From positions 12,606-76,605 of the forward strand of contig CAYYRJ010000010.1 in the NCBI GenBank assembly GCA_964474085.1: 64,000 nucleotides of DNA. Direction: 5' to 3'. This DNA comes from an uncultured Planctomycetales bacterium. Lineage in GTDB: Bacteria; Omnitrophota; Gorgyraeia; Zapsychrales; JANLHA01. The notes beneath the pieces were generated by a model. The model did no database searches. It worked only from the letters and a program-made list of their open reading frames with translations, and was not told the DNA's origin. Both the position numbers and the translations under genes were made by a program. Below, piece after piece: positions 20,774-34,778 of the stretch (position 1 is its first letter; the number at the start of each line of letters is the position of its first letter).

Positions 20774-20913
20774 TATGTTAGAAAGATTTTTACGTGGGAT
20801 AGCGGGATGTTTTATTTACAAATTGGTGTCCAATGATGTGGATGTTGAAACGATGCGGGGTTAAGTAAACATAATGATCCGGAGTTCGCTAACCAATGAG
20901 GAGAAGAGCAATT

Positions 20914-22704
20914 ATGACCGATGACCGTATCGCTAGATTGATCGAAACTGCAGAGGCTATCAAACGTGGAAATTTTTGTGTTCAACTTTCTGCCGAGGGC
21001 AATGATGAAATTGCGCATCTTGGCAGGCAACTGATCGACTTGGCGAGTTTTGTTGAAAAAAAGTTTGAAGAAATGCGCATCATGTCGGTTATTACCCAAA
21101 AAATCAATACGGGTATCGTTTTAGATGAAGTTCTTAATTATGCGTTTGATCATTTTAATGAGTTTATTCCTTATGACCGCATTGGGTTTTCGCTGATTGA
21201 ACAAAATGGAAAAAAGGTCCGCTCTCGCTGGGCCAAGTCAAGGGCGTCCGAGATGGTTTTAGGAAAAGGCTATAGTGCATTATTAGAAAACAGCAGTTTG
21301 CAAAAAATTATAGAGACAGGAAATCCCCGGATTCTCAATGACTTGGAAGAATATCTTAACGAACATCCGCAGTCGGATTCCACTCGAAAGGTTCTCTCCG
21401 AAGGGATTCGCTCGAGCTTGACTTGCCCTCTAATCGTTTTAGGCAAACCGATTGGGTTTATGTTTTTTTCGAGCATGCAAAAAAACACTTATCAAAATGT
21501 CCATTTGGATCTTTTTTTGCAGATTGCCGGTCAGTTTTCGATGATTGTTGAAAAAAGCAGGCTTTATGATGAGCTATTGCAAAAAAATGAAGACTTGCGT
21601 AAGCTCGACGAGCTTAAAAGTAATTTTGTGTCGACGATTTCTCATGAATTGCGGACACCTTTGACGATTATCAAAGAGTCAATCAGCCAGATTATAGACG
21701 GGATTTTGGGGCCTGTTCCCGAAAAGCAACAGAAATCCTTAAGTATTGCGCATAGATCTTGCAATCGTTTGATGAATATTATCAATGACCTTCTGGATAT
21801 GTCAAAACTCGAGGCAAAGAAAGTGCGGCTTCACAAAGAATATGTGGATGTTGCGGACCTGATCCATGATGTCGTTTTGTCTTTTGAGCCGCAAGCGGCG
21901 CAAAAAGGTTTGGAAATCAAACTCGATTGTCCTACCCAGCCGGTAAAAATTGAAATGGATCATGCCCGGATGGTACAAGTTTTTACAAATTTCGTCGGAA
22001 ACTCTTTGAAATTTACAAAGCAGGGAAGTATCACACTGGGATTTACTGAAAATATCGATGAAATTCACTGTTGGATTAAAGATACGGGTTGTGGCATTGC
22101 CGAGGAAGATTTAAAAAAAGTTTTTAACCGTTTTGAGCAATTTAACCGTCAACCGGGCTCTGGGCCTCGGGGAACAGGGTTGGGGCTGTCGATTTGTAAG
22201 GAAATTATTCAGTTGCATGGCGGGAATGTTTGGGTGGAAAGTAAATTAGATCAGGGCACCACAATTAATTTCGCTCTGCCAAAATTTTCAAGTCAAAAAT
22301 ATGCTCTTGCCGCGGTTCATGAAGCGTTTGCAAAAGCGGTTGATCAGTCGCTGCCTTTGTCGTTGGTAACCATTAGTATCAATAACAAAGAAGCTGCCTC
22401 TGGCAAGCATGATCAGCAGCAAATGGTTTCATTCCTGCATCGTTTTGAAGGTTGGATTTGGAAGTCATTGCGTCAAGATTCGGATCGGGTTGTCCGCAGT
22501 GAGTATTCTTTTTATGTGGTTTTGTTTTTGGACAAAAAAGATTCTTTTTCCGTCGCTGAACGTATTTCGCATACGATTAATGAACATCTTCTCAAGGAAG
22601 AGTTTTTTAAAGAACAGTTAAAAATCAGCTGGCAGGTGGTCAGTTATCCTTATGACGTTGTTAGTATTGATCAGTTGATTTCTAATCTTGGTTTGAACAA
22701 GTAA
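20914..22704 (+). CDS. sensor histidine kinase with GAF domain and a C-terminal degenerate GGDEF-like region
   Basis: H-box SHELRTPL and an HATPase_c domain (GLGLSICKEIIQLHGG). The last ~150 aa contain RSEYSFYVVLFLD...VAERISHTIN, reminiscent of an RxGGDEF...AERIR pattern. Alternative start at 20896. Confidence 0.7.
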   Translation: MTDDRIARLIETAEAIKRGNFCVQLSAEGNDEIAHLGRQLIDLASFVEKKFEEMRIMSVITQKINTGIVLDEVLNYAFDHFNEFIPYDRIGFSLIEQNGKKVRSRWAKSRASEMVLGKGYSALLENSSLQKIIETGNPRILNDLEEYLNEHPQSDSTRKVLSEGIRSSLTCPLIVLGKPIGFMFFSSMQKNTYQNVHLDLFLQIAGQFSMIVEKSRLYDELLQKNEDLRKLDELKSNFVSTISHELRTPLTIIKESISQIIDGILGPVPEKQQKSLSIAHRSCNRLMNIINDLLDMSKLEAKKVRLHKEYVDVADLIHDVVLSFEPQAAQKGLEIKLDCPTQPVKIEMDHARMVQVFTNFVGNSLKFTKQGSITLGFTENIDEIHCWIKDTGCGIAEEDLKKVFNRFEQFNRQPGSGPRGTGLGLSICKEIIQLHGGNVWVESKLDQGTTINFALPKFSSQKYALAAVHEAFAKAVDQSLPLSLVTISINNKEAASGKHDQQQMVSFLHRFEGWIWKSLRQDSDRVVRSEYSFYVVLFLDKKDSFSVAERISHTINEHLLKEEFFKEQLKISWQVVSYPYDVVSIDQLISNLGLNK

Positions 22705-24126: not shown

Positions 24127-26820
24127 ATGGATACGAAAAGATTTTATAGCATGACCACAGAAGCGGTGGCTGGGGATTTGGGCAGTGATTTAAAAAATGG
24201 TTTAAGCCACGAGTTGGCTCAAAAAGTTTTTTCTGAAATTGGGGCCAATCAACTGACAGAGCAAAAAGGCACCAGCCCTTTTGTTCTTTTTCTCGGACAG
24301 TTTAAAGATTTCATTGTTTGGGTTTTAATCGGTGCAGCGTGCGTTTCAGGCTTTTTGCAGGAATGGATCGATGCATTGGCCATTGTCGCTATTGTAATTA
24401 TCAACGCGATTTTAGGATTCATTCAGGAATACCGTGCCGAGAAGTCGCTGGCTGCGCTTCGAAAATTATCTAATCCGACGGCCAAAGTCATTCGTGACGG
24501 TCAGCGCCAGATCATCGGCTCTTGTCATTTGGTTCCAGGAGATCTGATAGAAGTTGAGGCTGGCGACAGTATTCCCGCCGACAGCCGCTTGGTGTGGGTC
24601 AGTTCTAATTTTGGCGTGCAAGAAGCGAGTCTTACGGGTGAATCAACGCCGGTAACCAAGACGATACAAGCATTAGAGGAAAAAGATATCCCTTTGGCGG
24701 ATCGGGCGAACATGGTTTATATGGGCACGTCGGTTTCTTTTGGTAAAGCCCGGGCGATGGTTGTTTTTACAGGGATGCAAACTGAACTTGGAAAAATTGC
24801 AGGTTTAGTCCAGGCTGTCGGACATGAGACGACACCTTTGCAGAAAAAACTCGAAGAGTTCGGCAAGTGGATTGTGTATTTGTGTTTTGTGATGGTGGGA
24901 ATTGTTTTTCTTTTAGGCTGGCTGCGCGGCGGAAAAATTGTGGATGTCTTTTTAACGTCGGTGAGTTTGGCAGTTGCAGCAATCCCTGAGGGGTTGCCGG
25001 CCGTTGTCACGATTGCTTTAGCACTAGGCGTGCACCGGATGGTCAAGCGTCATGCGCTTATTCGTAAATTGCCGTCGGTCGAAACTTTGGGTTGTGCGAC
25101 GGTTATCTGTTCGGATAAGACAGGAACGCTGACAAAAAATGAAATGACCGTTCAGAGAGTTTTTGTGGGGCATAAAGTTTTTACGGTCACAGGTATCGGC
25201 TATGCCCCGACGGGTGAGTTTTTGGTGGATGGAAATCTCCAGAATGATAAGCAACCGGATTTGCAAAACATCCTTCTTGCGAGTGTTTTGTGCAACGGGG
25301 CGCAATTGGTCAACAATGCCGGTGTTTATAAAATTGTCGGCGACCCGACGGAAGGGGCGCTGTTGACTCTTGCGGCGAAGGCGGGCATTTTAAAGGAAAA
25401 AGCTGAAAGCGAATTTTTGTTTGTCGATGAAATTCCCTTTGATTCTGAACGCAAAAAAATGACGGTGATTCGCAAGCACAAAGATCATATTTTGGCCTTT
25501 GTCAAAGGGGCCCCGGATATTTTGATTGCTGATTGCGTCAATATTTATCACGATGGGACGGTCAGAAAGTTGACCGACGCGGACAAAGAAGCGATTGCAC
25601 GAGTCAACGATCAACTTGCTAACCAAGCGATGCGTGTTTTAGCTGTCGCAACTCGAGAGTTAGACAAGAATTTAGAAAAGTTTGATGCCAAGTTGACAGA
25701 AACTCAATTGACCTTTGTCGGTTTGGTGGCAATGATTGATCCGCCTCGTCCAGAAGTCAAAGAAGCCATCACGCACTGTAAAGCCGCCGGGATTAAGACA
25801 GTCATGATCACAGGTGATCACAAAAACACAGCTGTCGCTATTGCCAAGGCCCTGGGATTTTTTAATGAAAACTCTTTAGCCTTAAGTGGGGAAGAGCTCG
25901 ACCGTTTAAATGATGAAGAGCTTTTTAAGCAGGTTAAAAATATTTCTGTGTATGCGCGTGTGTCGCCGGAGCATAAGCTTAGGGTTGTGCGTGCGTGGCG
26001 CAAACATGGGGATATTGTGGCCATGACCGGCGATGGGGTCAACGATGCGCCGGCCGTTAAGGAAGCGGATATTGGGGTGGCCATGGGCATTACGGGGACC
26101 GATGTGACCAAGGAAGTTGCGGACATGATTGTTACGGACGACAATTTTGCATCCATTGTTTCAGCCGTTGAAGAAGGCAGAGGCATTTATGACAATATCA
26201 AAAAATTTATACAGTATTTGCTCTCTTGTAATGCCGGGGAAATTTTGGTCATGTTTGTTGCGACCCTAGTCGGATTGCCCGCACCGCTTTTGCCGATTCA
26301 TATTTTATGGGTCAATCTTGTTACCGACGGATTGCCCGCGCTGGCTTTGGGGGTGGATCCCATTGACCCGCATATTATGAAACGTTCTCCGCGGCCTGCG
26401 GATGAAAAGGTGGTCAGCAAGGCCCGTGCGATTGCGATTCTTGCGCAGGGGTCTTTTATTGCGTTTTGTACCCTTTTGGCGTTTGTGTTTGTTCTCTATA
26501 TAGAAAAGGAAGGTTTGGCCCGGGCGCGGACGGCCGCCTTTATTGTATTGGCTTGTTCGCAGTTATTTCACGCGTTTAATTGCCGCAGTACAACCGAGTC
26601 TTTATTTAGGCTTGGAATTTTGACGAACAAAAAATTAATTCTGGCGACGGGGATTTCTTTTATCCTTCAGATGGCGGTCGTTTATTTGCCGTTTTGTCAG
26701 AAAATATTTAAAACAGAAGCCCTTGGGCTATTCGACTGGATTTTGGTGCTTGTTATTTCTTCGTTCCCGCTGTGGGCTGTTGAGATACAGAAGGCTCTTA
26801 AGAGAAAAAATGCTGTTTAA
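24127..26820 (+). CDS. P2-type cation-transporting ATPase (Ca2+-ATPase family)
   Basis: [18 protein letters not shown] and GDGVNDAP motifs, ~10 TM helices. Confidence 0.85.
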
Positions 26821-26838
26821 AGAATCGGGAATGCCGCA

Positions 26839-27210
26839 ATGAAACAGATTAAAAAGTTTGTGTTGATGGGGGCAGGGTTTTTGTTTGTAGCCTTGGGTGT
26901 TATCGGCTTCTTTTTGCCGGTTATGCCTAGCGTTCCTTTTTTTATTCTTGCGTCGATTTGTTTTTCGAAAAGTTCTGAAAAGTTTCATGATATGTTGATG
27001 AATAATAAATGGGTTGGGCCCCAAATTAGAGACTATCATCAGAATAATGGAATTAAGATGAGCACAAAGATTTTTTTGATTGTTTTGCAATGGTCGGGGA
27101 TATTATTTACGTCGATATTCTTTGTTCATAACCTGTTTGGAAGAGTCCTTATGCTTTGTATTGCCGTGGGCGTGACCGTTTACATAGTCTCGTTAAAAAC
27201 TGCCAAATGA
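26839..27210 (+). CDS. DUF454/YbaN-family inner membrane protein
   Basis: GFFLPVMPSVPFFILASICFSKSSEKFH, then a xGPxIRDY motif. Confidence 0.75.
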   Translation: MKQIKKFVLMGAGFLFVALGVIGFFLPVMPSVPFFILASICFSKSSEKFHDMLMNNKWVGPQIRDYHQNNGIKMSTKIFLIVLQWSGILFTSIFFVHNLFGRVLMLCIAVGVTVYIVSLKTAK

Positions 27211-28076
27211 CAAAAAAACCTAAAACCAAGACAGCTATCAGCAGAGGCCGCCGGGGTCTTTCAAAAAAGAAACCACACGAAACCCGCAAGGCTGAGCGCG
27301 TGCGGTTGCAGGGGCGGGTTAATTTTTTAAGTGATTCGCGAGATCAGTTGGATTTGGAACTCAAAGAACAGCGCGAAGAGCTTTTGCATGTAACACGCGT
27401 TGGCAAAATGGCAGAATTTGTTTCATCTTTAGCGCATGAAATTAGCCAGCCGCTGACGGCTATTCTTTCCTATGCTCAAGGTGCCAAGCGCATGCTGGGT
27501 AATCGGGAACCAGAGATACAAGAAATTTTGCAGTACATAATTAATGATGACCAGCGGGCGGCTGAGGTTATAAGGCAGTTGCGTTCGCTGCTTAAGAAAA
27601 GTGAGCCGCAGATAACGCTTTTAGATATCAATGCGCTTATCAGCGAAACGGTTTTGCTGCTCTCTGCGGATGCGACAGCCAAAAAAAATATTCTTAAGCT
27701 AGAGCTTAGTGCAAATATCCCGATGATAAAAGGCGATCGGATACAGCTGCAGCAGGTGCTTATAAATCTTATTAGCAATAGTTTTGACGCCATGCACGGC
27801 AGTAAACAGTCACATCAGATGGTGATTCGCACTTTACGTAAAGATCCAGAAACAATTTTAGTCGGAGTGCAGGACACAGGCTGCGGTATTGCGCCAGAGA
27901 ACATGACTAAAATTTTTTCGCATTTTTTTACCAGTAAGCCCGACGGGTTGGGCATGGGCCTGTCAATCAGCCGTTCGATCATTGCTGAGCATGGCGGAAT
28001 TTTGGAAGCAAAGAATAATCCTGATTGCGGCGCGACTTTTTATTTTACTTTGCCGATTGTTAGCAAACAGCTATGA
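27207..28076 (+). CDS. soluble sensor histidine kinase (no TM or sensor domain)
   Basis: HisKA LAHEISQPL plus HATPase_c. Start overlaps the YbaN stop (ATGA). Confidence 0.75.
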   Translation: MTKKPKTKTAISRGRRGLSKKKPHETRKAERVRLQGRVNFLSDSRDQLDLELKEQREELLHVTRVGKMAEFVSSLAHEISQPLTAILSYAQGAKRMLGNREPEIQEILQYIINDDQRAAEVIRQLRSLLKKSEPQITLLDINALISETVLLLSADATAKKNILKLELSANIPMIKGDRIQLQQVLINLISNSFDAMHGSKQSHQMVIRTLRKDPETILVGVQDTGCGIAPENMTKIFSHFFTSKPDGLGMGLSISRSIIAEHGGILEAKNNPDCGATFYFTLPIVSKQL

Positions 28077-28699
28077 AGAGTACAAAACCTATCGTTTATG
28101 TCGTTGATGATGATCTTTCTGTTTGCCGCGCTTTATCTGTTTTGTTAACTGCCAACGGGTTTTGGGTTGAAACTTTTAATCGGCCAGAGGATTTTTTGGC
28201 TTTCAAGCATCCGCATTTGACCGCTTGCCTTGTTTTGGATATTCGTATGCCTAAATTCAGCGGCTTTGAGCTTAGCGAAATAATGGCTCAACGCAAAATT
28301 GAAGTGCCTGTCATTTTCATAACCGGTCACGGCGATATCCCGATGAGCGTCAAGGCGATGAAGGCTGGTGCTATTGATTTTTTGCCTAAGCCGTTTACCC
28401 AAAAACAATTGCTGGCCGCTATTACTTTGGCTTTGATTAGAAGTAAAAAACAAAATTTAGAAAAATCGCAAATTGCGAGGATCAAAGGCCGCATCAAAAC
28501 TTTGTCGGTCCGCGAATTGGAGGTTTTTCGTTTTGTTGCTTTAGGGATGTTAAGCAAGCAGATTGCCTTCAAGCGTGGAACGTCCCTGCAAACGATCAAA
28601 GTCCACCGCTCCCGCGTCATGCAAAAGATGGACGCAAAAACCGTCACCGAGCTTATTGCCTTTGCGCAAAAAGCCGGCATAGTCTCTCTGCCACAATAA
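28073..28699 (+). CDS. FixJ/LuxR-family response regulator (REC + HTH)
   Basis: VVDDD REC domain and a LuxR-type HTH. ATGA overlap with the HK gene. Confidence 0.8.
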   Translation: MKSTKPIVYVVDDDLSVCRALSVLLTANGFWVETFNRPEDFLAFKHPHLTACLVLDIRMPKFSGFELSEIMAQRKIEVPVIFITGHGDIPMSVKAMKAGAIDFLPKPFTQKQLLAAITLALIRSKKQNLEKSQIARIKGRIKTLSVRELEVFRFVALGMLSKQIAFKRGTSLQTIKVHRSRVMQKMDAKTVTELIAFAQKAGIVSLPQ

Positions 28700-28832
28700 T
28701 CTTTCAATAATAAAATTCATTCTCTCGTCGGGAAAGTCCGCTATTATACCTCGGTACAATTGCATCGCTTCGCCTCTTGCCTAAAATACAATCATGAATT
28801 TAGAAAACACACCATCTAAGGAGAAAAGCCCG

Positions 28833-29219
28833 ATGCTCTCAGATAAAAGAAAAGTCTTTATTGTTGACGATGACATTTCGGTTCGACGTGCCCTGGGGAT
28901 TCTTTTAAAGACTTATGAGTTTATTGTCGAAGCTTTTTCATCCGCTGAAGAGTTTTTTAGTGCTGTGCCCAACAGCGTTGCAGGCTGTTTACTCTTGGAT
29001 ATCCATATGCCCGGCCTAGACGGCTGGGGTACCCTTTCGCGGCTGCAAGCGTCAGGGTCAAAACGTTCGGTGATTATGATTACCGCCGAAAAGAATAATG
29101 GGGTAAGGGCCCGGGCGATGAGTGCAGGCGCCACGGGATTTTTACAAAAACCATTTAACGACCAAGAGTTGGTTGCTTTGATCAACCAGTCGTTTTTGGA
29201 AAGGAGGTCACCATGTTAA
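28833..29219 (+). CDS. single-domain response regulator (REC only)
   Basis: FIVDDD...[11 protein letters not shown]...FLQKPF. AAGGAG RBS places the start at 28833. Confidence 0.7.
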
Positions 29220-29377
29220 ATTGGGCAGTGACATTTTTTGTTATTGCTATTATCGCCGCGGTTTTGGGATTCGGCGGTATTGCAGGCTCGGCTATTGACA
29301 TTGCCAAGATTTTATTCTTTGTATTCTTGGTTTTGGCAGTGCTTTCATTCCTTTTAGGGAGAACAAGAACGTTGTAA
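29213..29377 (+). CDS. UPF0391 (DUF1328, YtjA-like) small membrane protein, 54 aa; not in ORF track
   Basis: [64 protein letters not shown] at 29201. Overlaps the REC gene stop. Confidence 0.7.
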
Positions 29378-29406
29378 TTCAAAAACAGGTTAACGAAAGG
29401 GATTAT

Positions 29407-30183
29407 ATGAATATGGATCATGTGAAAGTTTTGGTTGCATCTTTAGGGGTGGTTTTAATGATGGGTTCATCCGCGGGTGCTTCGCAAACGGATGAACGGA
29501 TTGAAGCCTCTGCCAAGAAGTCGTATGTTTTTAAGACGTATCTTAAAGACGACAGTATTAACACCCAGTCAAAAGATGGCGTGGTTACTTTGACGGGCAC
29601 GGTCGCCGAAGAATCACACAGATCATTGGCCCAGGAAACAGTGGCCAATTTACCCGGAGTTGTCAACGTCGATAACCAGTTAAAACTACAAGGGCAAGTG
29701 CCCGTTGAGAATTCGGATAATTGGATCGGGATGCAGGTTAAGTATTCGCTACTTTACAATCGCAATGTCAGCGGCATTAATACAAAAGTTGCTGTTGTTG
29801 ATGGCATTGTTACGTTAAAAGGCGAAGCCGAGAATCAAGCGCAGATTGACTTGGCTGGTGAATATGCCAAGGACATCAAAGGGGTCAAGGACGTCAAGAA
29901 TGAAATGACGATTGCTAAAGTTATCAGTGTCCCTAAGCAAACTTTAGCCGAAAAGATCGATGATGCTTCGATTACCGCGCAAATAAAGATGGCGCTTTTA
30001 TCGCATCGCTCGACGAGTGCTTTTAAAACCGGCGTGGCGACTTTAAACGGGGAAGTTACTTTGACCGGCAAAGCCGACAATGCCGCTGGAAAAGATATCG
30101 CCAGCAAACTTGCCAATGATGTTTATGGCGTGACAAAAGTGGTCAATAACATGACTATTGAAGATGTTTTGTCAAAAAAATAG
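29407..30183 (+). CDS. periplasmic BON-domain protein (OsmY-like, three BON repeats)
   Basis: Signal peptide plus three repeats of GVVTLTG...A...PGV..V.N.L. Confidence 0.8.
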   Translation: MNMDHVKVLVASLGVVLMMGSSAGASQTDERIEASAKKSYVFKTYLKDDSINTQSKDGVVTLTGTVAEESHRSLAQETVANLPGVVNVDNQLKLQGQVPVENSDNWIGMQVKYSLLYNRNVSGINTKVAVVDGIVTLKGEAENQAQIDLAGEYAKDIKGVKDVKNEMTIAKVISVPKQTLAEKIDDASITAQIKMALLSHRSTSAFKTGVATLNGEVTLTGKADNAAGKDIASKLANDVYGVTKVVNNMTIEDVLSKK

Positions 30184-30195
30184 GTGTTTAGAAAA

Positions 30196-30240
30196 GGCCG
30201 GTTGGTGCTTTAAGTTAAACGCACCAGCCGGTGTTTCTTG
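30196..30240 (+). terminator. rho-independent terminator
   Basis: Stem ccggttggtgc / gcaccagccgg (one G-U pair), followed by tgtttctt. Confidence 0.4.
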
Positions 30241-30276
30241 AGGATAATTCTAAAATTACGATAAAAGGGGGAAGAT

Positions 30277-30417
30277 ATGAAAAAGAATTTAATGTTGATT
30301 TTTACCGCTGTGTTTTTAACAACGATGATCGCAGGTTGCAATATGTTTAAAGGCGCTGGAAAAGACATGGAAAACGCCGGCAAAGGGATTCAAAAAACAG
30401 TGGACCGTAATGATTAA
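30277..30417 (+). CDS. entericidin-like small lipoprotein, 46 aa; not in ORF track
   Basis: MKKNLMLIFTAVFLTTMIAGCNMFKGAGKDMENAGKGIQKTVDRND, with a lipobox and a glycine-rich amphipathic tail. RBS aaaggggg. Confidence 0.65.
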   Translation: MKKNLMLIFTAVFLTTMIAGCNMFKGAGKDMENAGKGIQKTVDRND

Positions 30418-30420
30418 ACG

Positions 30421-30609
30421 TTGTTTTTGGCATTTGCGCAAGCAGGAGGCATTATTAAAAAATTGGTCGTTTCTCTAAAGGGAAGAAAATGTAAATATCC
30501 AAGATGCAAGCACATCTTAAGTATTTATAACCATGAAATTTATTGTCACGTTCATGCCGCCAGTCTGGAGGACCGAAAAGGGGGGCAAGGGGTATGCGCG
30601 GGGATTTAA
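30421..30609 (+). CDS. putative small zinc-ribbon protein (start uncertain)
   Basis: C-KYPR-C ... C-HVH spacing suggests a metal ligand set. Overlaps the GtrA start. No clean RBS. Confidence 0.25.
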   Translation: MFLAFAQAGGIIKKLVVSLKGRKCKYPRCKHILSIYNHEIYCHVHAASLEDRKGGQGVCAGI

Positions 30610-30977
30610 AAGAAATCTTGCGTTTTTCAATGGCCGGCGCTTTAGCCGGTTGTGTCGACTTAAGCGTTTATTTTCTTTTGATCCCTTTCGTATCTTTTAA
30701 CATTTCTAAAGCGATTTCTTTTACCTGCGCCGGAATTATCGCGTATTTGCTAAATAAGTTTTGGATATTTAAAAGTAAGATGTCTGTTTCCTATCAAGAA
30801 ATTGGGCGCTATATTCTCGTCAATCTTTTAGCTTTGGTGATTAATATTTTGACTAATCAGGGCATTTTAAAACTCTGGCCTTCGTCTTTTCTTTTAGCTT
30901 GGAGCATCGCTTCAATAGCTACCGGTTTGGTGACTTTTTTGGGCTTTAAATGGTGGGTTTTTCGTTATCCGAAGTAA
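30594..30977 (+). CDS. GtrA-family membrane protein
   Basis: 127 aa with 4 TM helices and the GtrA-like pattern FxxxGxxxxxxNxxLxxxxxF...KWWVFR. Confidence 0.7.
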   Translation: MRGDLKEILRFSMAGALAGCVDLSVYFLLIPFVSFNISKAISFTCAGIIAYLLNKFWIFKSKMSVSYQEIGRYILVNLLALVINILTNQGILKLWPSSFLLAWSIASIATGLVTFLGFKWWVFRYPK

Positions 30978-31044
30978 TGCGTATAGAAAGCCTCTGGTCA
31001 GGGAAGTATAATAAACTCAGATAAAAACAAAATTGAGGTTTGCC

Positions 31045-33315
31045 ATGTGGTGGAAATGGTTGCCGTGGAAATTTCTTGTTCGTCAGGCAGCGCGCCGGCA
31101 GGGGTTTTTAGACCCGATTAAACTGCTTTCGCAATTGCAGAATTTTGCCCAGCCCTCTGAAGTTGCCGCCCCGACGGAGTTATTGCGTTCCGGCGTTGTT
31201 CTTCACGCGCGGGGCTTGATGAACAGTTTGGCGATTCAGCATAATTTAGACTGGGTTTGGCCGTATTGGGTCGAATGCCAATATGATCCGCTTAACAGAG
31301 CGTTTATTCCCAGATCGTTTTCTTTAACACAAATTAATCTTACACATCGAAATTGGACGGCTTTAGGCGTTCCTGACGGTGTCGAGTTTCCGCTGGTTGA
31401 CCCCCGAGGGCTTTTGACGCCGTTTTATGATAGCTGGTCGATCGATGTTTGGATTATCCCCCAAACTGGGCAGCCGCTTTTTCCTTCGCGCTGTCCGACG
31501 GTATCCCAAAAATTGATCATAAAAGACAATCTTTGCGTCACAACAGAATCAAGTCTTGATTCTCTAAAATTGCAATTAAAGGCCAAGGTCATTGGCAGCG
31601 CGCAAACGCCGGTCTGCCAGCTAAAAATTTCAGCATCATCGTCGGTCAAAGCGCGGCTGGTTGTTTCTCTAAGACCGTATAATCCAGAAGGGGTCAGCTT
31701 TATCAATACGATAGCGATGATGGAAGATTCTTTGGGATGGAAAGTTAACGGCGAGCATTCGATCTATTTTGATAAAAAGCCGCACCAATGTATTTTTTGT
31801 AATTATCAACAGGGGGATGTTTATAGCCGTTTGTCTTTCCCTGAGCCTGAACATGAAATTTCCTGTCACGTCGGCATGGCCACTGCGGCGGCGACTTACA
31901 CATTATCTGAGGGAGAGATGCAAGAAATTACGGTTTTAATCCCATTGTCAAAACACCCTTTTAAAAAAGAAAATTCCAGTCACGATGAAAAAACAGCCGA
32001 TTCTTTATGGGAAAAAAGTTTAGAAGGCGCCTGCCGTTTGCAAATTCCCGACGAGCATTTTATGTTCCTTTATCAGGCGGCGCTTAAGACGATGGTTTTG
32101 CATTCCCCTCGCGAAGTTTATCCGGGGCCGTTTATTTATCGGCGGTTTTGGTTTCGTGACGCCGCTTTTATTTTGCACGCGCTTCTGGCGGTCGGATTAA
32201 AAGACCGCGTCAAACGCGCCTTGGATTGTTTTCGCGCACGCCAGACGAATCAAGGGTATTTTCTTTCGCAAGAAGGCGAATGGGATTCCAACGGTCAAGC
32301 GCTTTGGATTATCGAGCAGTATTGCCGGATGAGTGGAAATCCGCCGGCAGAACAATGGGAAAACTCGATTAAAAAGGCAGGCGAATGGATTTGCAAAAAG
32401 TGTTTGCCTGAGGATTTGCCTTCTGCGCACGCCGGTCTTTTGCCGTCGGGCTTTAGCGCTGAACATTTGGGACCCAACGATTTTTATTATTGGGATGATT
32501 TTTGGGGTGTCTCGGGGTTAAAGGCTGCAGCTTTTTTGTGTGAAAAAAACAAGAGCGCAAAATTGTCGATCAAGTTTGAAAAAAAAGCATTCGCTTTATT
32601 AGAAAGCATTATGGAAAGTTTAAAAAAAGTCCAAGCGCGTTTGCACCGACCGGCAATCCCGGCTTCGCCGTATCGACGTCTTGATACAGGCGCTATCGGC
32701 TCTTTGGTGGCGGGGTATCCGCTTCGAATTTTTAAACCCGATGATCAAAGGCTTTTAGACACGGCAGATTTTTTAATGAAAAACTGTTTGGTCGCTGGCG
32801 GATTTTTTCATGACATGACCCACTCTGGGATCAATCCTTATCTGACGCTGCATTTGGCCCAAGTGCTTTTGCGCGCCGGTGATGAACGTTATTTTCCGCT
32901 GATGACGGCGGTCGCAAATCTTGCTTCCCCGACGGGACAATGGCCCGAGTCAGTGCATCCGCAAACCTTAGGCGGCTGCATGGGAGACGGGCAGCATGTT
33001 TGGGCAGCGGCTGAATGGGTGCTTATGGTCCGCAACTGTTTTGTCCGTGAAGAAGAGCAAAGTCTTATTTTGTGCAGCGGGATCTCTAAAGAGTGGCTTT
33101 TACAAAAACAAACAATGAGCTTTGGCCCGGCCCCGACGAGTTTTGGCGACATTCAAGTTTTTATAAAAGTTAATGAAGAAAATATTGTTGTTGAGTGGAA
33201 AGGCCAATGGTTTGGCCAAGCGCCGTCGATTGAAATTCGTTTGCCGGGGTTTGCGCCAGAGCGTGTTTTGCCGGGAGTCGATCAGCTGGTTTTAAAACTT
33301 GAGGCAAAGTCATGA
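31045..33315 (+). CDS. large six-hairpin (alpha/alpha)6 glycosidase-like protein (GDE_C / GH63 / GH116-like; family unresolved)
   Basis: 756 aa with an N-terminal beta-rich region, then FIYRRFWFRDAAFILHALLAVG and QGYFLSQEGEWDSNGQALWI resembling the W-x-RD...Q..G motifs of amylo-alpha-1,6-glucosidase-type barrels. ATG at 31045 after GAGG. Confidence 0.45.
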   Translation: MWWKWLPWKFLVRQAARRQGFLDPIKLLSQLQNFAQPSEVAAPTELLRSGVVLHARGLMNSLAIQHNLDWVWPYWVECQYDPLNRAFIPRSFSLTQINLTHRNWTALGVPDGVEFPLVDPRGLLTPFYDSWSIDVWIIPQTGQPLFPSRCPTVSQKLIIKDNLCVTTESSLDSLKLQLKAKVIGSAQTPVCQLKISASSSVKARLVVSLRPYNPEGVSFINTIAMMEDSLGWKVNGEHSIYFDKKPHQCIFCNYQQGDVYSRLSFPEPEHEISCHVGMATAAATYTLSEGEMQEITVLIPLSKHPFKKENSSHDEKTADSLWEKSLEGACRLQIPDEHFMFLYQAALKTMVLHSPREVYPGPFIYRRFWFRDAAFILHALLAVGLKDRVKRALDCFRARQTNQGYFLSQEGEWDSNGQALWIIEQYCRMSGNPPAEQWENSIKKAGEWICKKCLPEDLPSAHAGLLPSGFSAEHLGPNDFYYWDDFWGVSGLKAAAFLCEKNKSAKLSIKFEKKAFALLESIMESLKKVQARLHRPAIPASPYRRLDTGAIGSLVAGYPLRIFKPDDQRLLDTADFLMKNCLVAGGFFHDMTHSGINPYLTLHLAQVLLRAGDERYFPLMTAVANLASPTGQWPESVHPQTLGGCMGDGQHVWAAAEWVLMVRNCFVREEEQSLILCSGISKEWLLQKQTMSFGPAPTSFGDIQVFIKVNEENIVVEWKGQWFGQAPSIEIRLPGFAPERVLPGVDQLVLKLEAKS

Positions 33316-34778
33316 CCCAAAGTCTTCTTACAGGATTTAGAAATTTCTTGGTACTAAGCACTGGTCAATTTATTGATCCGCACGAGATTGAAGCGCTTTA
33401 TACCCAATCGGCTCCTGTCAAAGAAATGTGTGTTTTTGCGATTTTAGGGATGAAAGGTCATAAGAAATCAAAAGTGCTCTGGGCGGTCATTGTGCCGGAT
33501 TTAGAGCAGTTTAGAGAATTTGATGAAGTTAATTTGCGTGCTGTGATTGGAGAGCGTTTTGATAATGCGGCGCAGGCACTGCCGGTTTACAAAAGGCTTA
33601 AAGGTTTTACCCTGACCCTCAAAGATTTGCCGCATACGTATTTGGGAGCTGTGGACACAAGTCAGGTCAAAAAAATATTTGAACCTCGTGTGTTGGCCGG
33701 ACTAGAAGGAAGTATTTCTGGTGGTGGCAAGATTTCACCAGAGGATTTGCTTTTACGTGAATCATCGACGGGAAAGAAAGTCCTGGAATGTTTAATGCTG
33801 CAGAGCAAAGCAAATCAGCCGATCACTCTTGAAGATTCTCTGGAGTTGGATTTAGGGATTGATTCCTTAGGGCGTATTGAGCTTGCTTCGCGTTTAGCAC
33901 TTGGGTTTAGCGCTGATATTAAGCCGGAGGTTATTTCAAAATCGTTTAGGATCAAGGCGCTTATTGTAAGTATTAACGAAGCCTTAAAAGATGCAAAAGC
34001 TATTCTTCCGTCAGATGAAGGCTTGACTTTGGGAGCGGATTATTGGGAAGAACATCTAAATGTCCTGCCTAAAAAAGAAACGCTGGATATGCTCGAGCTG
34101 GGAACAGGCTATTTTGCGTGGCTGTTTCGGTTTGTCATAACAGCTATTAATTTTGTGATTTTTAAATTATTTTTTCAGATTAAAGGGCAAGGTGCTGAGT
34201 ATGTACCGAAAGAAGGCGCTTTTATTCTTTACGGCAATCATACAAGTTTTTTGGACGGTTCGGCGATTGCCGCTTGCCTGCCACGTCGACGCGTGTTTCA
34301 ACTCTTTTATTTTGTTTTTGGCCCGTATTTTTTTAGACCTTTCGAAAAATCCAGTGTTTTGCGCAACTTAGTCAAGATGGGACGCTTTATTCCGTTTGAT
34401 TATTCAACGCATTTTTTGGAGGCTTTGCGCAGTAGTTATTATGTTTTACAGCAGGGAAAGGGCTTATGTTTTTTCCCGGAAGGCTTGCGAAGTACGACGG
34501 GAGAAATCGGTGAATTTAGAAAGGGTTTTGGCGTTTTGGCCAAAGAAACGGGTGCTAAACTTGTTCCGGTCGCGATAGACGGAGCGCACGAGGCTTGGAG
34601 CAGCACGGCCAAGTTCCCGCGCTGTTATCCTATTCGTGTGCGTTTTGGAAAACCCCTTTTACCGGCGGATTTAGAAAAGCAAGGGTTTGCGATGGGTGCC
34701 AAAAACAGTTATGAGGCTATTTGTATTGCCGCGCGTGCGGCGCTTATCGAATTAAAAAACGATAAAGGTAAGATATGA
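33312..34778 (+). CDS. tri-partite protein: C-terminal remnant of an acyl-CoA/ACP synthetase, an acyl-carrier domain and an LPLAT (PlsC-like) acyltransferase
   Basis: Residues 1-120 match a FACL-type C-terminus (EMCVFAI, KVLWAVIVPDLEQ, LPVYKRLKGFTLT). The DLGIDSLGRIELA phosphopantetheine site is at ~180. NHTSFLD (HxxxxD) and FPEGLRS acyltransferase motifs follow. ATGA overlap with the upstream gene. Confidence 0.65.
   Translation: MTQSLLTGFRNFLVLSTGQFIDPHEIEALYTQSAPVKEMCVFAILGMKGHKKSKVLWAVIVPDLEQFREFDEVNLRAVIGERFDNAAQALPVYKRLKGFTLTLKDLPHTYLGAVDTSQVKKIFEPRVLAGLEGSISGGGKISPEDLLLRESSTGKKVLECLMLQSKANQPITLEDSLELDLGIDSLGRIELASRLALGFSADIKPEVISKSFRIKALIVSINEALKDAKAILPSDEGLTLGADYWEEHLNVLPKKETLDMLELGTGYFAWLFRFVITAINFVIFKLFFQIKGQGAEYVPKEGAFILYGNHTSFLDGSAIAACLPRRRVFQLFYFVFGPYFFRPFEKSSVLRNLVKMGRFIPFDYSTHFLEALRSSYYVLQQGKGLCFFPEGLRSTTGEIGEFRKGFGVLAKETGAKLVPVAIDGAHEAWSSTAKFPRCYPIRVRFGKPLLPADLEKQGFAMGAKNSYEAICIAARAALIELKNDKGKI

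Follow-up and report, generated by a model that had tools for sequence, protein, structure and literature searches.

The closest described relatives of the gene cluster analysed here are the FixL-FixJ-FixT system of Caulobacter and rhizobia and the StyS-StyR and TodS-TodT systems of Pseudomonas. The cluster occupies positions 26839-30417, on the forward strand, of a 64,000-nucleotide stretch (hereafter the window) of contig CAYYRJ010000010.1 (GenBank assembly GCA_964474085.1), from a genome of Candidatus Omnitrophota. Its seven genes encode, in order, a DUF454/YbaN membrane protein, a soluble histidine kinase, a FixJ/StyR-type response regulator, a lone receiver (REC), a DUF1328/UPF0391 protein, a triple-BON OsmY-like protein and an entericidin-like lipoprotein, as an original prediction made from the letters of the sequence had read them; Pfam, NCBIfam and the coordinates bear out all seven, with entericidin membership borderline. 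We describe a conserved operator and promoter between the regulator and receiver genes, and argue that the cluster is probably the local copy of a two-component stress circuit spread through the Omnitrophota.

FixT is a single-domain receiver that acts as a negative-feedback inhibitor of FixL and bears a four-cysteine Fe-S-binding motif (PMC7078487). The window resembles this system in several respects. The kinase core is nearest the FixL module, the regulator combines REC and GerE domains with FixJ as its top NCBIfam match, and a single-domain receiver gene is under apparent pathway control, as FixT is. By analogy, FixT is the best precedent for the role that the window's receiver may play. 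The differences are equally clear. FixL carries a haem-PAS domain, whereas the window kinase lacks any sensor; its best NCBIfam match, sens_FixL (residues 46-286), scores 192 against an equivalog cut-off of 850, and the regulator's FixJ match scores 194 bits against 255. The window receiver has only two cysteines (C65 and C141) in place of the four-cysteine motif. The FixK intermediate is not seen here, and the targets are envelope and general-stress genes rather than respiration and nitrogen-fixation genes. We class the system as a member of the FixLJ/StySR group that lacks the haem-PAS domain defining FixL and stays below the equivalog cut-offs.

Among solved structures, the window's regulator is most similar to StyR. 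Once phosphorylated, StyR forms dimers and switches on transcription from an inverted repeat placed some 40 bp upstream of the start (PMC2442086), and the geometry in the window is the same. StyS and TodS differ in being large double-kinase sensors with PAS domains, in having catabolic operons as targets and in using IHF and multiple sites. The StyR/TodT boxes are ATAAACC-NN-GGTTTAT-like and share with the window's repeat the core ACC-NN-GGT.

The effector genes have their own precedents. The small ORFs (open reading frames) controlled by sigma-S in Salmonella include ytjA and ecnB (PMC5437024). In E. coli K-12 MG1655 osmY is followed, after 126 bp and on the same strand, by ytjA (DUF1328); the original prediction was right that the two genes are neighbours. 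The RpoS-dependent enterobacterial osmY-ytjA and ecnB genes belong to the same three families as those of the window (BON/OsmY, DUF1328/YtjA and entericidin). They differ in being controlled by an alternative sigma factor, whereas a two-component regulator acting at a sigma-70-type promoter apparently controls the genes here. OsmY has two BON domains against three here, and the window's OsmY and EcnB scores fall below the equivalog cut-offs. The general stress response of alphaproteobacteria (PhyR-NepR-sigma EcfG) is likewise modulated by single-domain receivers, and many members of its regulon come from the small families seen here (CsbD, BON, DUF1328, entericidin, Transgly_assoc and DUF3309). 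That pathway uses an extracytoplasmic function (ECF)-type promoter, whereas the output here is a DNA-binding response regulator and the promoter is not of ECF type. Neither PhyR, NepR nor EcfG is present here, and Pfam finds no sigma-like domain in any cluster protein.

The Omnitrophota are widespread and mostly uncultivated. To our knowledge, nothing is known of gene regulation in the phylum, and among the papers listed by a full-text search for Omnitrophota and two-component systems, no title or abstract deals with such a system.

A conserved operator and promoter behind the regulator gene

Window proteins were searched against Pfam and NCBIfam, each at gathering/equivalog cut-offs, and hydrophobic stretches were scored by Kyte-Doolittle. 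The comparative sample comprised 80 loci that an alignment of kinase homologues retrieved from GTDB species genomes, and their ORFs were annotated by phmmer with the window's proteins. Neighbourhood counts leave out the near-identical loci L001-L003, of which L001 is the window's own sequence.

Aligning the DNA upstream of lone REC genes across loci revealed a shared element. In the window it is a 7-2-7 inverted repeat, TTATACC-TC-GGTACAA, at 28744-28759 on the + strand, 44 nucleotides (nt) past the stop codon of the regulator; we propose it as an operator. The repeat abuts a sigma-70-like core promoter on the same strand (28760-28787), composed of the -35 hexamer TTGCAT (28760-28765), a 16-nt spacer and the -10 hexamer TAAAAT (28782-28787). 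Six bases separate this -10 from the REC ATG at 28794. If the transcript starts at the A of that ATG, seven bases past the -10, the palindrome would be centred at about -42.5. The promoter was located by cross-locus comparison and the terminator behind the BON gene by folding; a generic promoter/terminator scan did not rise above shuffled sequences and missed both.

The window holds a single operator site, against 0.15 expected by chance in 64 kb. The site scores 31.2 bits with a position weight matrix, and nothing else in the window reaches 8 bits save the site's own reverse image. A second operator at that threshold, for example before the entericidin-like gene or before the DUF454 and kinase genes, is therefore absent from the 64 kb. 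Across the 80 kinase loci, a loose pattern recovered 130 sites, 110 of which carry a -10-like hexamer, nearly all at a spacing of 16-17 nt. All but three of these 110 aligned sites (107/110) lie on the strand of the kinase. Their consensus is RTTATACCnnGGTACAATTGATTnnnT, and the operator positions that the search pattern left free are still 73-99% conserved: in the left half a mix of A and G, then T in 104, T in 103, A in 101 and T in 109 of the 110 sites, and in the right half A in 95, T in 80 and T in 90. The consensus core promoter is nearly canonical (TTGATT, 16-17 nt, TATAAT). Two 7-bp half-sites spaced by 2 bp and abutting the -35 (TTGCAT in the window, TTGATT across the aligned sites) have the geometry of operators bound by regulators of the GerE family type.

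The operator is tied to the regulator gene. It occurs within 300 bp after the regulator's stop in 59/68 loci, compared with 2.7 expected from its density across the loci. The 37.5 kb of unrelated Omnitrophota DNA that we fetched through DUF454 contains no operator site, against one per 7.5 kb around kinases. A sample picked independently of the kinase gave a similar picture, as the exact 20-base motif was found in at least 120 metagenome stretches. Among the matches listed, 127 of 128 metagenome sites have a -10 hexamer, nearly all at 16-17 nt, and 27 of 120 stretches (median 3.8 kb) carry an orthologous kinase or regulator. This co-occurrence is far more than chance would give for one 1.5-kb locus in a genome of a few megabases.

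Kinase, regulator, receiver and effector genes

The kinase (27207-28076, + strand, 289 aa) matches HisKA and HATPase_c only in Pfam. It consists of a basic N-terminal tail, a coiled-coil DHp domain with the H-box SLAHEISQPL, and a catalytic domain. Pfam and the hydrophobicity scan found neither a PAS domain nor a transmembrane segment, in agreement with the original prediction of a kinase without membrane or sensor domain. The lone hydrophobic 19-mer at threshold level (residues 136-154, Kyte-Doolittle 1.61) lies inside the catalytic core. An alternative upstream start adding transmembrane segments, which the prediction had named as the result that would overturn it, is excluded. The reading frame can be extended by just 17 polar residues, to a TTG at 27156, before an in-frame stop at 27129, and because of this stop no other start can add such segments.

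The closest solved relative of the kinase is the FixL kinase module 4gcz (E=2.3e-46). The N-terminal 46 residues form a basic tail that does not match the PAS-bearing homologues, and a lysine/arginine-rich tail is common to the short forms. The homologues include 28 short kinases (290-330 aa) and 45 PAS-bearing ones (415-530 aa); about one-third are sensor-less and have no DUF454 at all. Since short and PAS-bearing forms do not separate in a neighbour-joining tree of the catalytic core (L003-L082 kinase ORFs), the input domain has been lost or gained repeatedly. With loss or gain this recurrent, the tree does not single out a recent truncation of PAS where the kinase meets DUF454 as the cause of the sensor-less kinase. 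A protein encoded in a metagenome-assembled genome matches the kinase at 100% identity, and all close kinase homologues are from Omnitrophota assemblies. Some contigs with a 65-86% identical kinase carry the labels Planctomycetales, Marinamargulisbacteria, Elusimicrobia, Firestonebacteria or Goldiibacteriota (L003, L006, L022, L028, L036, L040, L063 and L079); these are either mislabelled bins or a sign that the system is more widely spread.

The regulator (28073-28699, + strand, 208 aa) consists of a receiver and a GerE/LuxR helix-turn-helix domain (Pfam Response_reg and GerE). Its closest solved relatives are StyR (1yio, 4.6e-47 over the full length) and, second, FixJ (5xso, 1.7e-38). It adjoins the kinase in 66/72 loci with at least 1 kb downstream. 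In the window the pair seems to be co-transcribed with genes for a DEAD helicase and an ATPase.

The lone receiver (28794-29219, + strand, 141 aa; Pfam Response_reg 92.8 bits) has all phospho-acceptor residues (D25/D26, D69, T97 and K119). Two starts are available in the window. The ATG at 28794 follows the -10 by 6 nt; the other, an ATG at 28833, is led by a Shine-Dalgarno sequence, would give 128 aa and is the automatic gene caller's choice. In 22 REC promoters an ATG in frame with the receiver stands exactly 6 nt after the -10. Seven loci (L008, L023, L051, L060, L103, L170 and L185) have no alternative Shine-Dalgarno-led ATG. Since no other start is possible there, translation of these receivers must begin on a leaderless mRNA. 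The ATG at 28794 is thus a probable leaderless start, and both starts may be used. More generally, the position of the ATG in REC promoters points to leaderless mRNAs in Omnitrophota.

The receiver is the first ORF behind the operator at 41/106 sites in the kinase loci and at 17/123 metagenome sites among the matches listed, and is the commonest gene in that position. In many loci distinct REC paralogues flank the kinase on its upstream and its downstream side. In 16/61 loci the second paralogue immediately precedes the kinase gene and stands behind an operator variant of greater symmetry, TCTATTGTACCTTGGTACAATAGA, whose -10 resembles TAATAAT; examples are L008 (6889), L012 (8764), L019 (4250), L029 (8748), L050 (237), L056 (9231) and L074 (9297). 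This arrangement suggests autoregulated REC-kinase-regulator operons. The window has no such upstream copy.

The DUF1328/UPF0391 gene (29213-29377, + strand) encodes a YtjA-like protein of 54 aa with two transmembrane segments, seen as hydrophobic stretches. Its membership of UPF0391 is clear (Pfam PF07043, 59.2 bits against 27; NCBIfam PRK13682, 84.3 bits against 52). The last 7 nt of REC are also the first of this gene, whose start is preceded by the Shine-Dalgarno sequence AAGGAGG at 29200-29206. Inside the 3' end of REC, just before this ribosome-binding site, is a terminator-like hairpin with a T-run (29168-29200), which may be due to chance or may be a weak attenuator, as the scan did not, overall, exceed shuffled sequences. 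The next gene (29407-30183, + strand, 258 aa) encodes a secreted protein with three BON stretches (Pfam BON, 161 bits) and an N-terminal hydrophobic signal segment at residues 6-24. At 92.7 against the NCBIfam OsmY level of 174, it is OsmY-like, not an orthologue.

Behind the BON gene, at 30197-30240 on the + strand, is a hairpin resembling an intrinsic terminator, followed by UGUUUCUU. Its predicted RNA fold has -30 kcal/mol (z = -4.86; 0/200 shuffles as good). With its U-tract, it probably ends a REC-DUF1328-BON transcript. Further on, at 30277-30417 on the + strand, is the entericidin-like lipoprotein gene (46 aa, lipobox IAGC). Its family membership is borderline, at 23.3 bits exactly on the cut-off of Pfam PF08085 and at 25.5 against 94 for NCBIfam EcnB. 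Rfam gave no match to a structured RNA in 26000-31200 at E<=1.

These genes recur around the kinase in other genomes. Among 61 loci with at least 5 kb downstream, 42 have a lone receiver downstream, 38 at least one of the entericidin-like, DUF1328 and BON genes, and 24 at least two. Matches to these three families number 79 downstream of the kinase (607 kb) versus 0 upstream (493 kb). The commonest order is REC, entericidin-like, DUF1328, BON, with the order and spacing of the effector genes varying between loci. Thus, the envelope and stress-signalling cluster that had been predicted is a real, conserved neighbourhood of signalling and envelope-protein genes, as the regulator, receiver and effector counts and the operator-promoter all indicate. 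The predicted pairing of the receiver with UPF0391 survives in part. The two usually share an operon-like array, but their overlap is found only in the window and in L003, and the gene right after REC is entericidin-like in 17/50 cases and DUF1328 in only 2. The coupling of REC and DUF1328 is a lineage-specific variant of a conserved operon theme.

Where the first ORF behind an operator is not REC, the proteins encoded include DUF1328, BON, entericidin-like, CsbD, DUF5670, DUF3185, DUF2934, DUF3309, DUF6515 and Transgly_assoc proteins. Further first ORFs encode MlaE with ABC ATPases, a low-affinity iron permease, VIT1, GGDEF proteins, polysaccharide export proteins, alpha/beta hydrolases and autotransporters. 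An ECF sigma factor is one of the 55 non-REC first genes. In this single case (L013, 16108-17238), operators flank the sigma gene on either side, just upstream of a lone REC. Such a make-up is typical of a general or envelope stress regulon, such as those of RpoS, SigB and EcfG, and the genes behind the operator look like a set of this type. No gene in the set singles out osmotic stress, a label that the original prediction drew by analogy with E. coli.

A proposed circuit and its alternatives

A model that joins these observations begins with the soluble FixL-like kinase (27207-28076), which would phosphorylate the FixJ/StyR-type regulator (28073-28699). The phosphorylated dimer would bind the 7-2-7 repeat at 28744-28759, which abuts the -35 and would be centred near -42.5. 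Binding would control, and most likely activate, a REC-DUF1328-BON transcript with its end at the hairpin at 30197-30240. The receiver would most likely feed back on the kinase, either as a phosphate sink or as a FixT-like inhibitor. The DUF1328, BON and entericidin-like proteins would be envelope effectors within a wider regulon of general-stress type that uses the same operator. DUF454/YbaN would stand outside the circuit, as part of an upstream block of a GAF-domain kinase, a P-type ATPase and DUF454. We consider it probable, though well short of secure, that the cluster is the local copy of such a circuit, comprising kinase, regulator, operator, REC-DUF1328-BON and receiver feedback, and that the circuit extends across the phylum.

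Several points weigh against this model. We infer the link between operator and regulator from sequence and physical linkage in an uncultivated organism, and the palindrome could belong to another regulator. No input domain is recognisable in the kinase. Since the core promoter is already near consensus, the regulator may be a repressor and not an activator. In the window no operator precedes the kinase-regulator pair, in contrast to the loci with operator-bearing REC-kinase-regulator operons. The entericidin-like gene sits past the terminator with no operator in front of it, and the receiver lacks the four-cysteine motif of Caulobacter FixT.

If a different factor, such as another transcription factor or an unrelated repressor, read the palindrome and promoter, the two-component genes would be members of the regulon and not its master. 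The binding of the regulator to the operator is putative, and operators also stand upstream of REC-kinase-regulator operons in many loci, as if the system were itself a target. In favour of such a factor, too, among the metagenome matches listed 93/120 stretches, all short, have neither kinase nor regulator. Against it stands the placement right after the regulator's stop in 59/68 loci, and these loci share no further DNA-binding gene with any consistency. A near-consensus core promoter suits repression, but a 7-2-7 repeat beside the -35 fits GerE-family regulators such as StyR. We consider a different factor unlikely.

The lone receiver could alternatively carry the signal forward, by binding a downstream partner (through an ECF sigma partner switch or a cyclic di-GMP enzyme) and so extending the response. 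The sigma gene between two operators just upstream of REC in L013 would fit such a role, but only 1/55 non-REC first genes encodes an ECF sigma factor. GGDEF proteins recur behind operators, and two distinct REC paralogues flank the kinase in many loci; against this, no conserved partner gene accompanies REC, and the role documented for such a receiver in the FixLJ family is feedback inhibition. Forward signalling is doubtful to about the same degree as a different binding factor. ECF-sigma or PhyR-like partner switching was rejected as a candidate, as an ECF sigma gene stands beside REC in only one locus.

The original prediction gave the central role to DUF454, as the membrane sensor or anchor of the sensor-less kinase with translational coupling fixing the stoichiometry of the two, and had the receiver work with the UPF0391 protein. 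The DUF454 gene (26839-27210, + strand, 123 aa) is a clear member of its family (PF04304, 120.9 bits against a cut-off of 35.1) with three to four hydrophobic segments; it does not reach the E. coli YbaN equivalog (71 versus 163 in NCBIfam). The overlaps on which the prediction was built are present in the sequence: ATGA at 27207-27210 between DUF454 and the kinase and ATGTTAA at 29213-29219 between REC and DUF1328, with a further ATGA at 28073-28076 between kinase and regulator. The kinase has no input domain, as the idea supposes, and the arrangement is retained in L003, the 86%-identical relative. However, overlapping junctions are frequent elsewhere in the window (for example 33312/33315 and 34775/34778), and since stop/start overlaps are common in so compact a stretch, overlap alone says little about partnership. 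That an entericidin-like gene, rather than DUF1328, is usually next after REC also argues against a REC-UPF0391 partnership.

Comparison with other genomes goes further. The prediction had tied itself to conservation of the DUF454-kinase adjacency in related genomes. DUF454 adjoins the kinase only in the window and L003, and is found nowhere in the 79 other kinase loci, 28 of which have kinases just as short. Conversely, the FixL-like kinase is absent from the four neighbourhoods of DUF454 orthologues (65-77% identity) that we examined. In the nearest relatives, L003 and L084, DUF454 follows a P-type ATPase gene. The L084 orthologue (77% identity), the closest of the four, overlaps the ATPase by 4 nt within a block of GAF-kinase, P-type ATPase and DUF454 that is followed by unrelated transporter genes. 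The window carries a matching block upstream, with a GAF-kinase at 20896-22704, a DEAD/DbpA helicase and a P-type ATPase. Since DUF454 belongs to the ATPase block in the window and its nearest relatives, the junction that brings it next to the kinase is lineage-specific. DUF454 is a bystander to the signalling circuit, juxtaposed with the kinase in one lineage; as the kinase's partner it is refuted on the prediction's own terms, and the prediction as a whole, which includes the REC-UPF0391 partnership, is very improbable.

Two observations concern DUF454 and its block in their own right. The GAF-domain histidine kinase is an orphan, with no adjacent regulator, that is kept with the P-type ATPase and DUF454 (window 20896-22704; L003 3652-5439; L084 431-2215). 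DUF454 orthologues at 65-71% identity (L085-L087) adjoin envelope-lipid genes, namely those for an LpxD-like acyltransferase and VanZ, for the undecaprenyl-diphosphatase BacA, and for PgpA and a CDP-alcohol phosphatidyltransferase. These neighbours hint at a lipid-related role for YbaN-family proteins in Omnitrophota.

That stress genes and a two-component system merely stand side by side by chance in a compact single-strand segment is scarcely credible: effector order and spacing do vary between loci, and shared orientation is uninformative because 40/43 ORFs of at least 150 aa lie on the + strand, but the neighbourhood statistics already contradict it, with 79 effector genes downstream versus 0 upstream, an operator linkage of 59/68 against 2.7 expected, and the same families recovered by a motif-based sample blind to the kinase.

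Flanking genes and implications for the Omnitrophota

Genes for GtrA, a 760-aa protein and a 488-aa acyltransferase form a block downstream of the two-component cluster (window 30543-34778), and the block takes this place in 23/61 loci (L005, L008, L010, L014, L017 and others). Pfam gives no match for the 760-aa protein, and a similarity of only 25.9 bits links it to an oligosaccharide amylase; many genomes encode it together with GtrA as a single fused ORF of about 890-915 aa. In a few cases an operator stands a short way ahead of the GtrA block or of acyltransferase paralogues (for example L057 11233, L080 2469 and L031 1090). The strand bias of the window is unusually strong. In addition to the orientation of its ORFs, the GC skew is positive in every 2-kb bin of the 64 kb.

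Compared with the described systems, what is new here is the arrangement. A phylum-wide operator stands on sigma-70-type promoters, a regulon of general-stress type is apparently under a response regulator, leaderless receivers are its main target, and the input domain of the kinase is recurrently lost or gained. We tentatively extend this to a broader proposal, to which we give slightly less than even weight. The general or envelope stress response of Omnitrophota would run through a FixLJ/StySR-type system and not an alternative sigma factor. One regulator would act at a phylum-wide 7-2-7 operator on sigma-70-type promoters and control dozens of small stress genes, among them DUF1328, BON, entericidin-like, CsbD, DUF5670 and Mla genes. 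Leaderless receivers, the commonest first target, would close a feedback loop, and kinase input domains would have been repeatedly lost or gained.

Our analysis removes the tempting but unsupported idea that YbaN/DUF454 is a co-sensor of the kinase. It also provides a regulatory context for widespread families of unknown function, including DUF1328, DUF5670, DUF2934, DUF3185 and DUF6515. The regulator, operator and promoter form a compact set that is testable in a heterologous host, and the operator is a handle for interpreting metatranscriptomes. As the operator is sharply defined and tied to a specific regulator, it yields a testable regulon for Omnitrophota that can be read directly from metagenomes.

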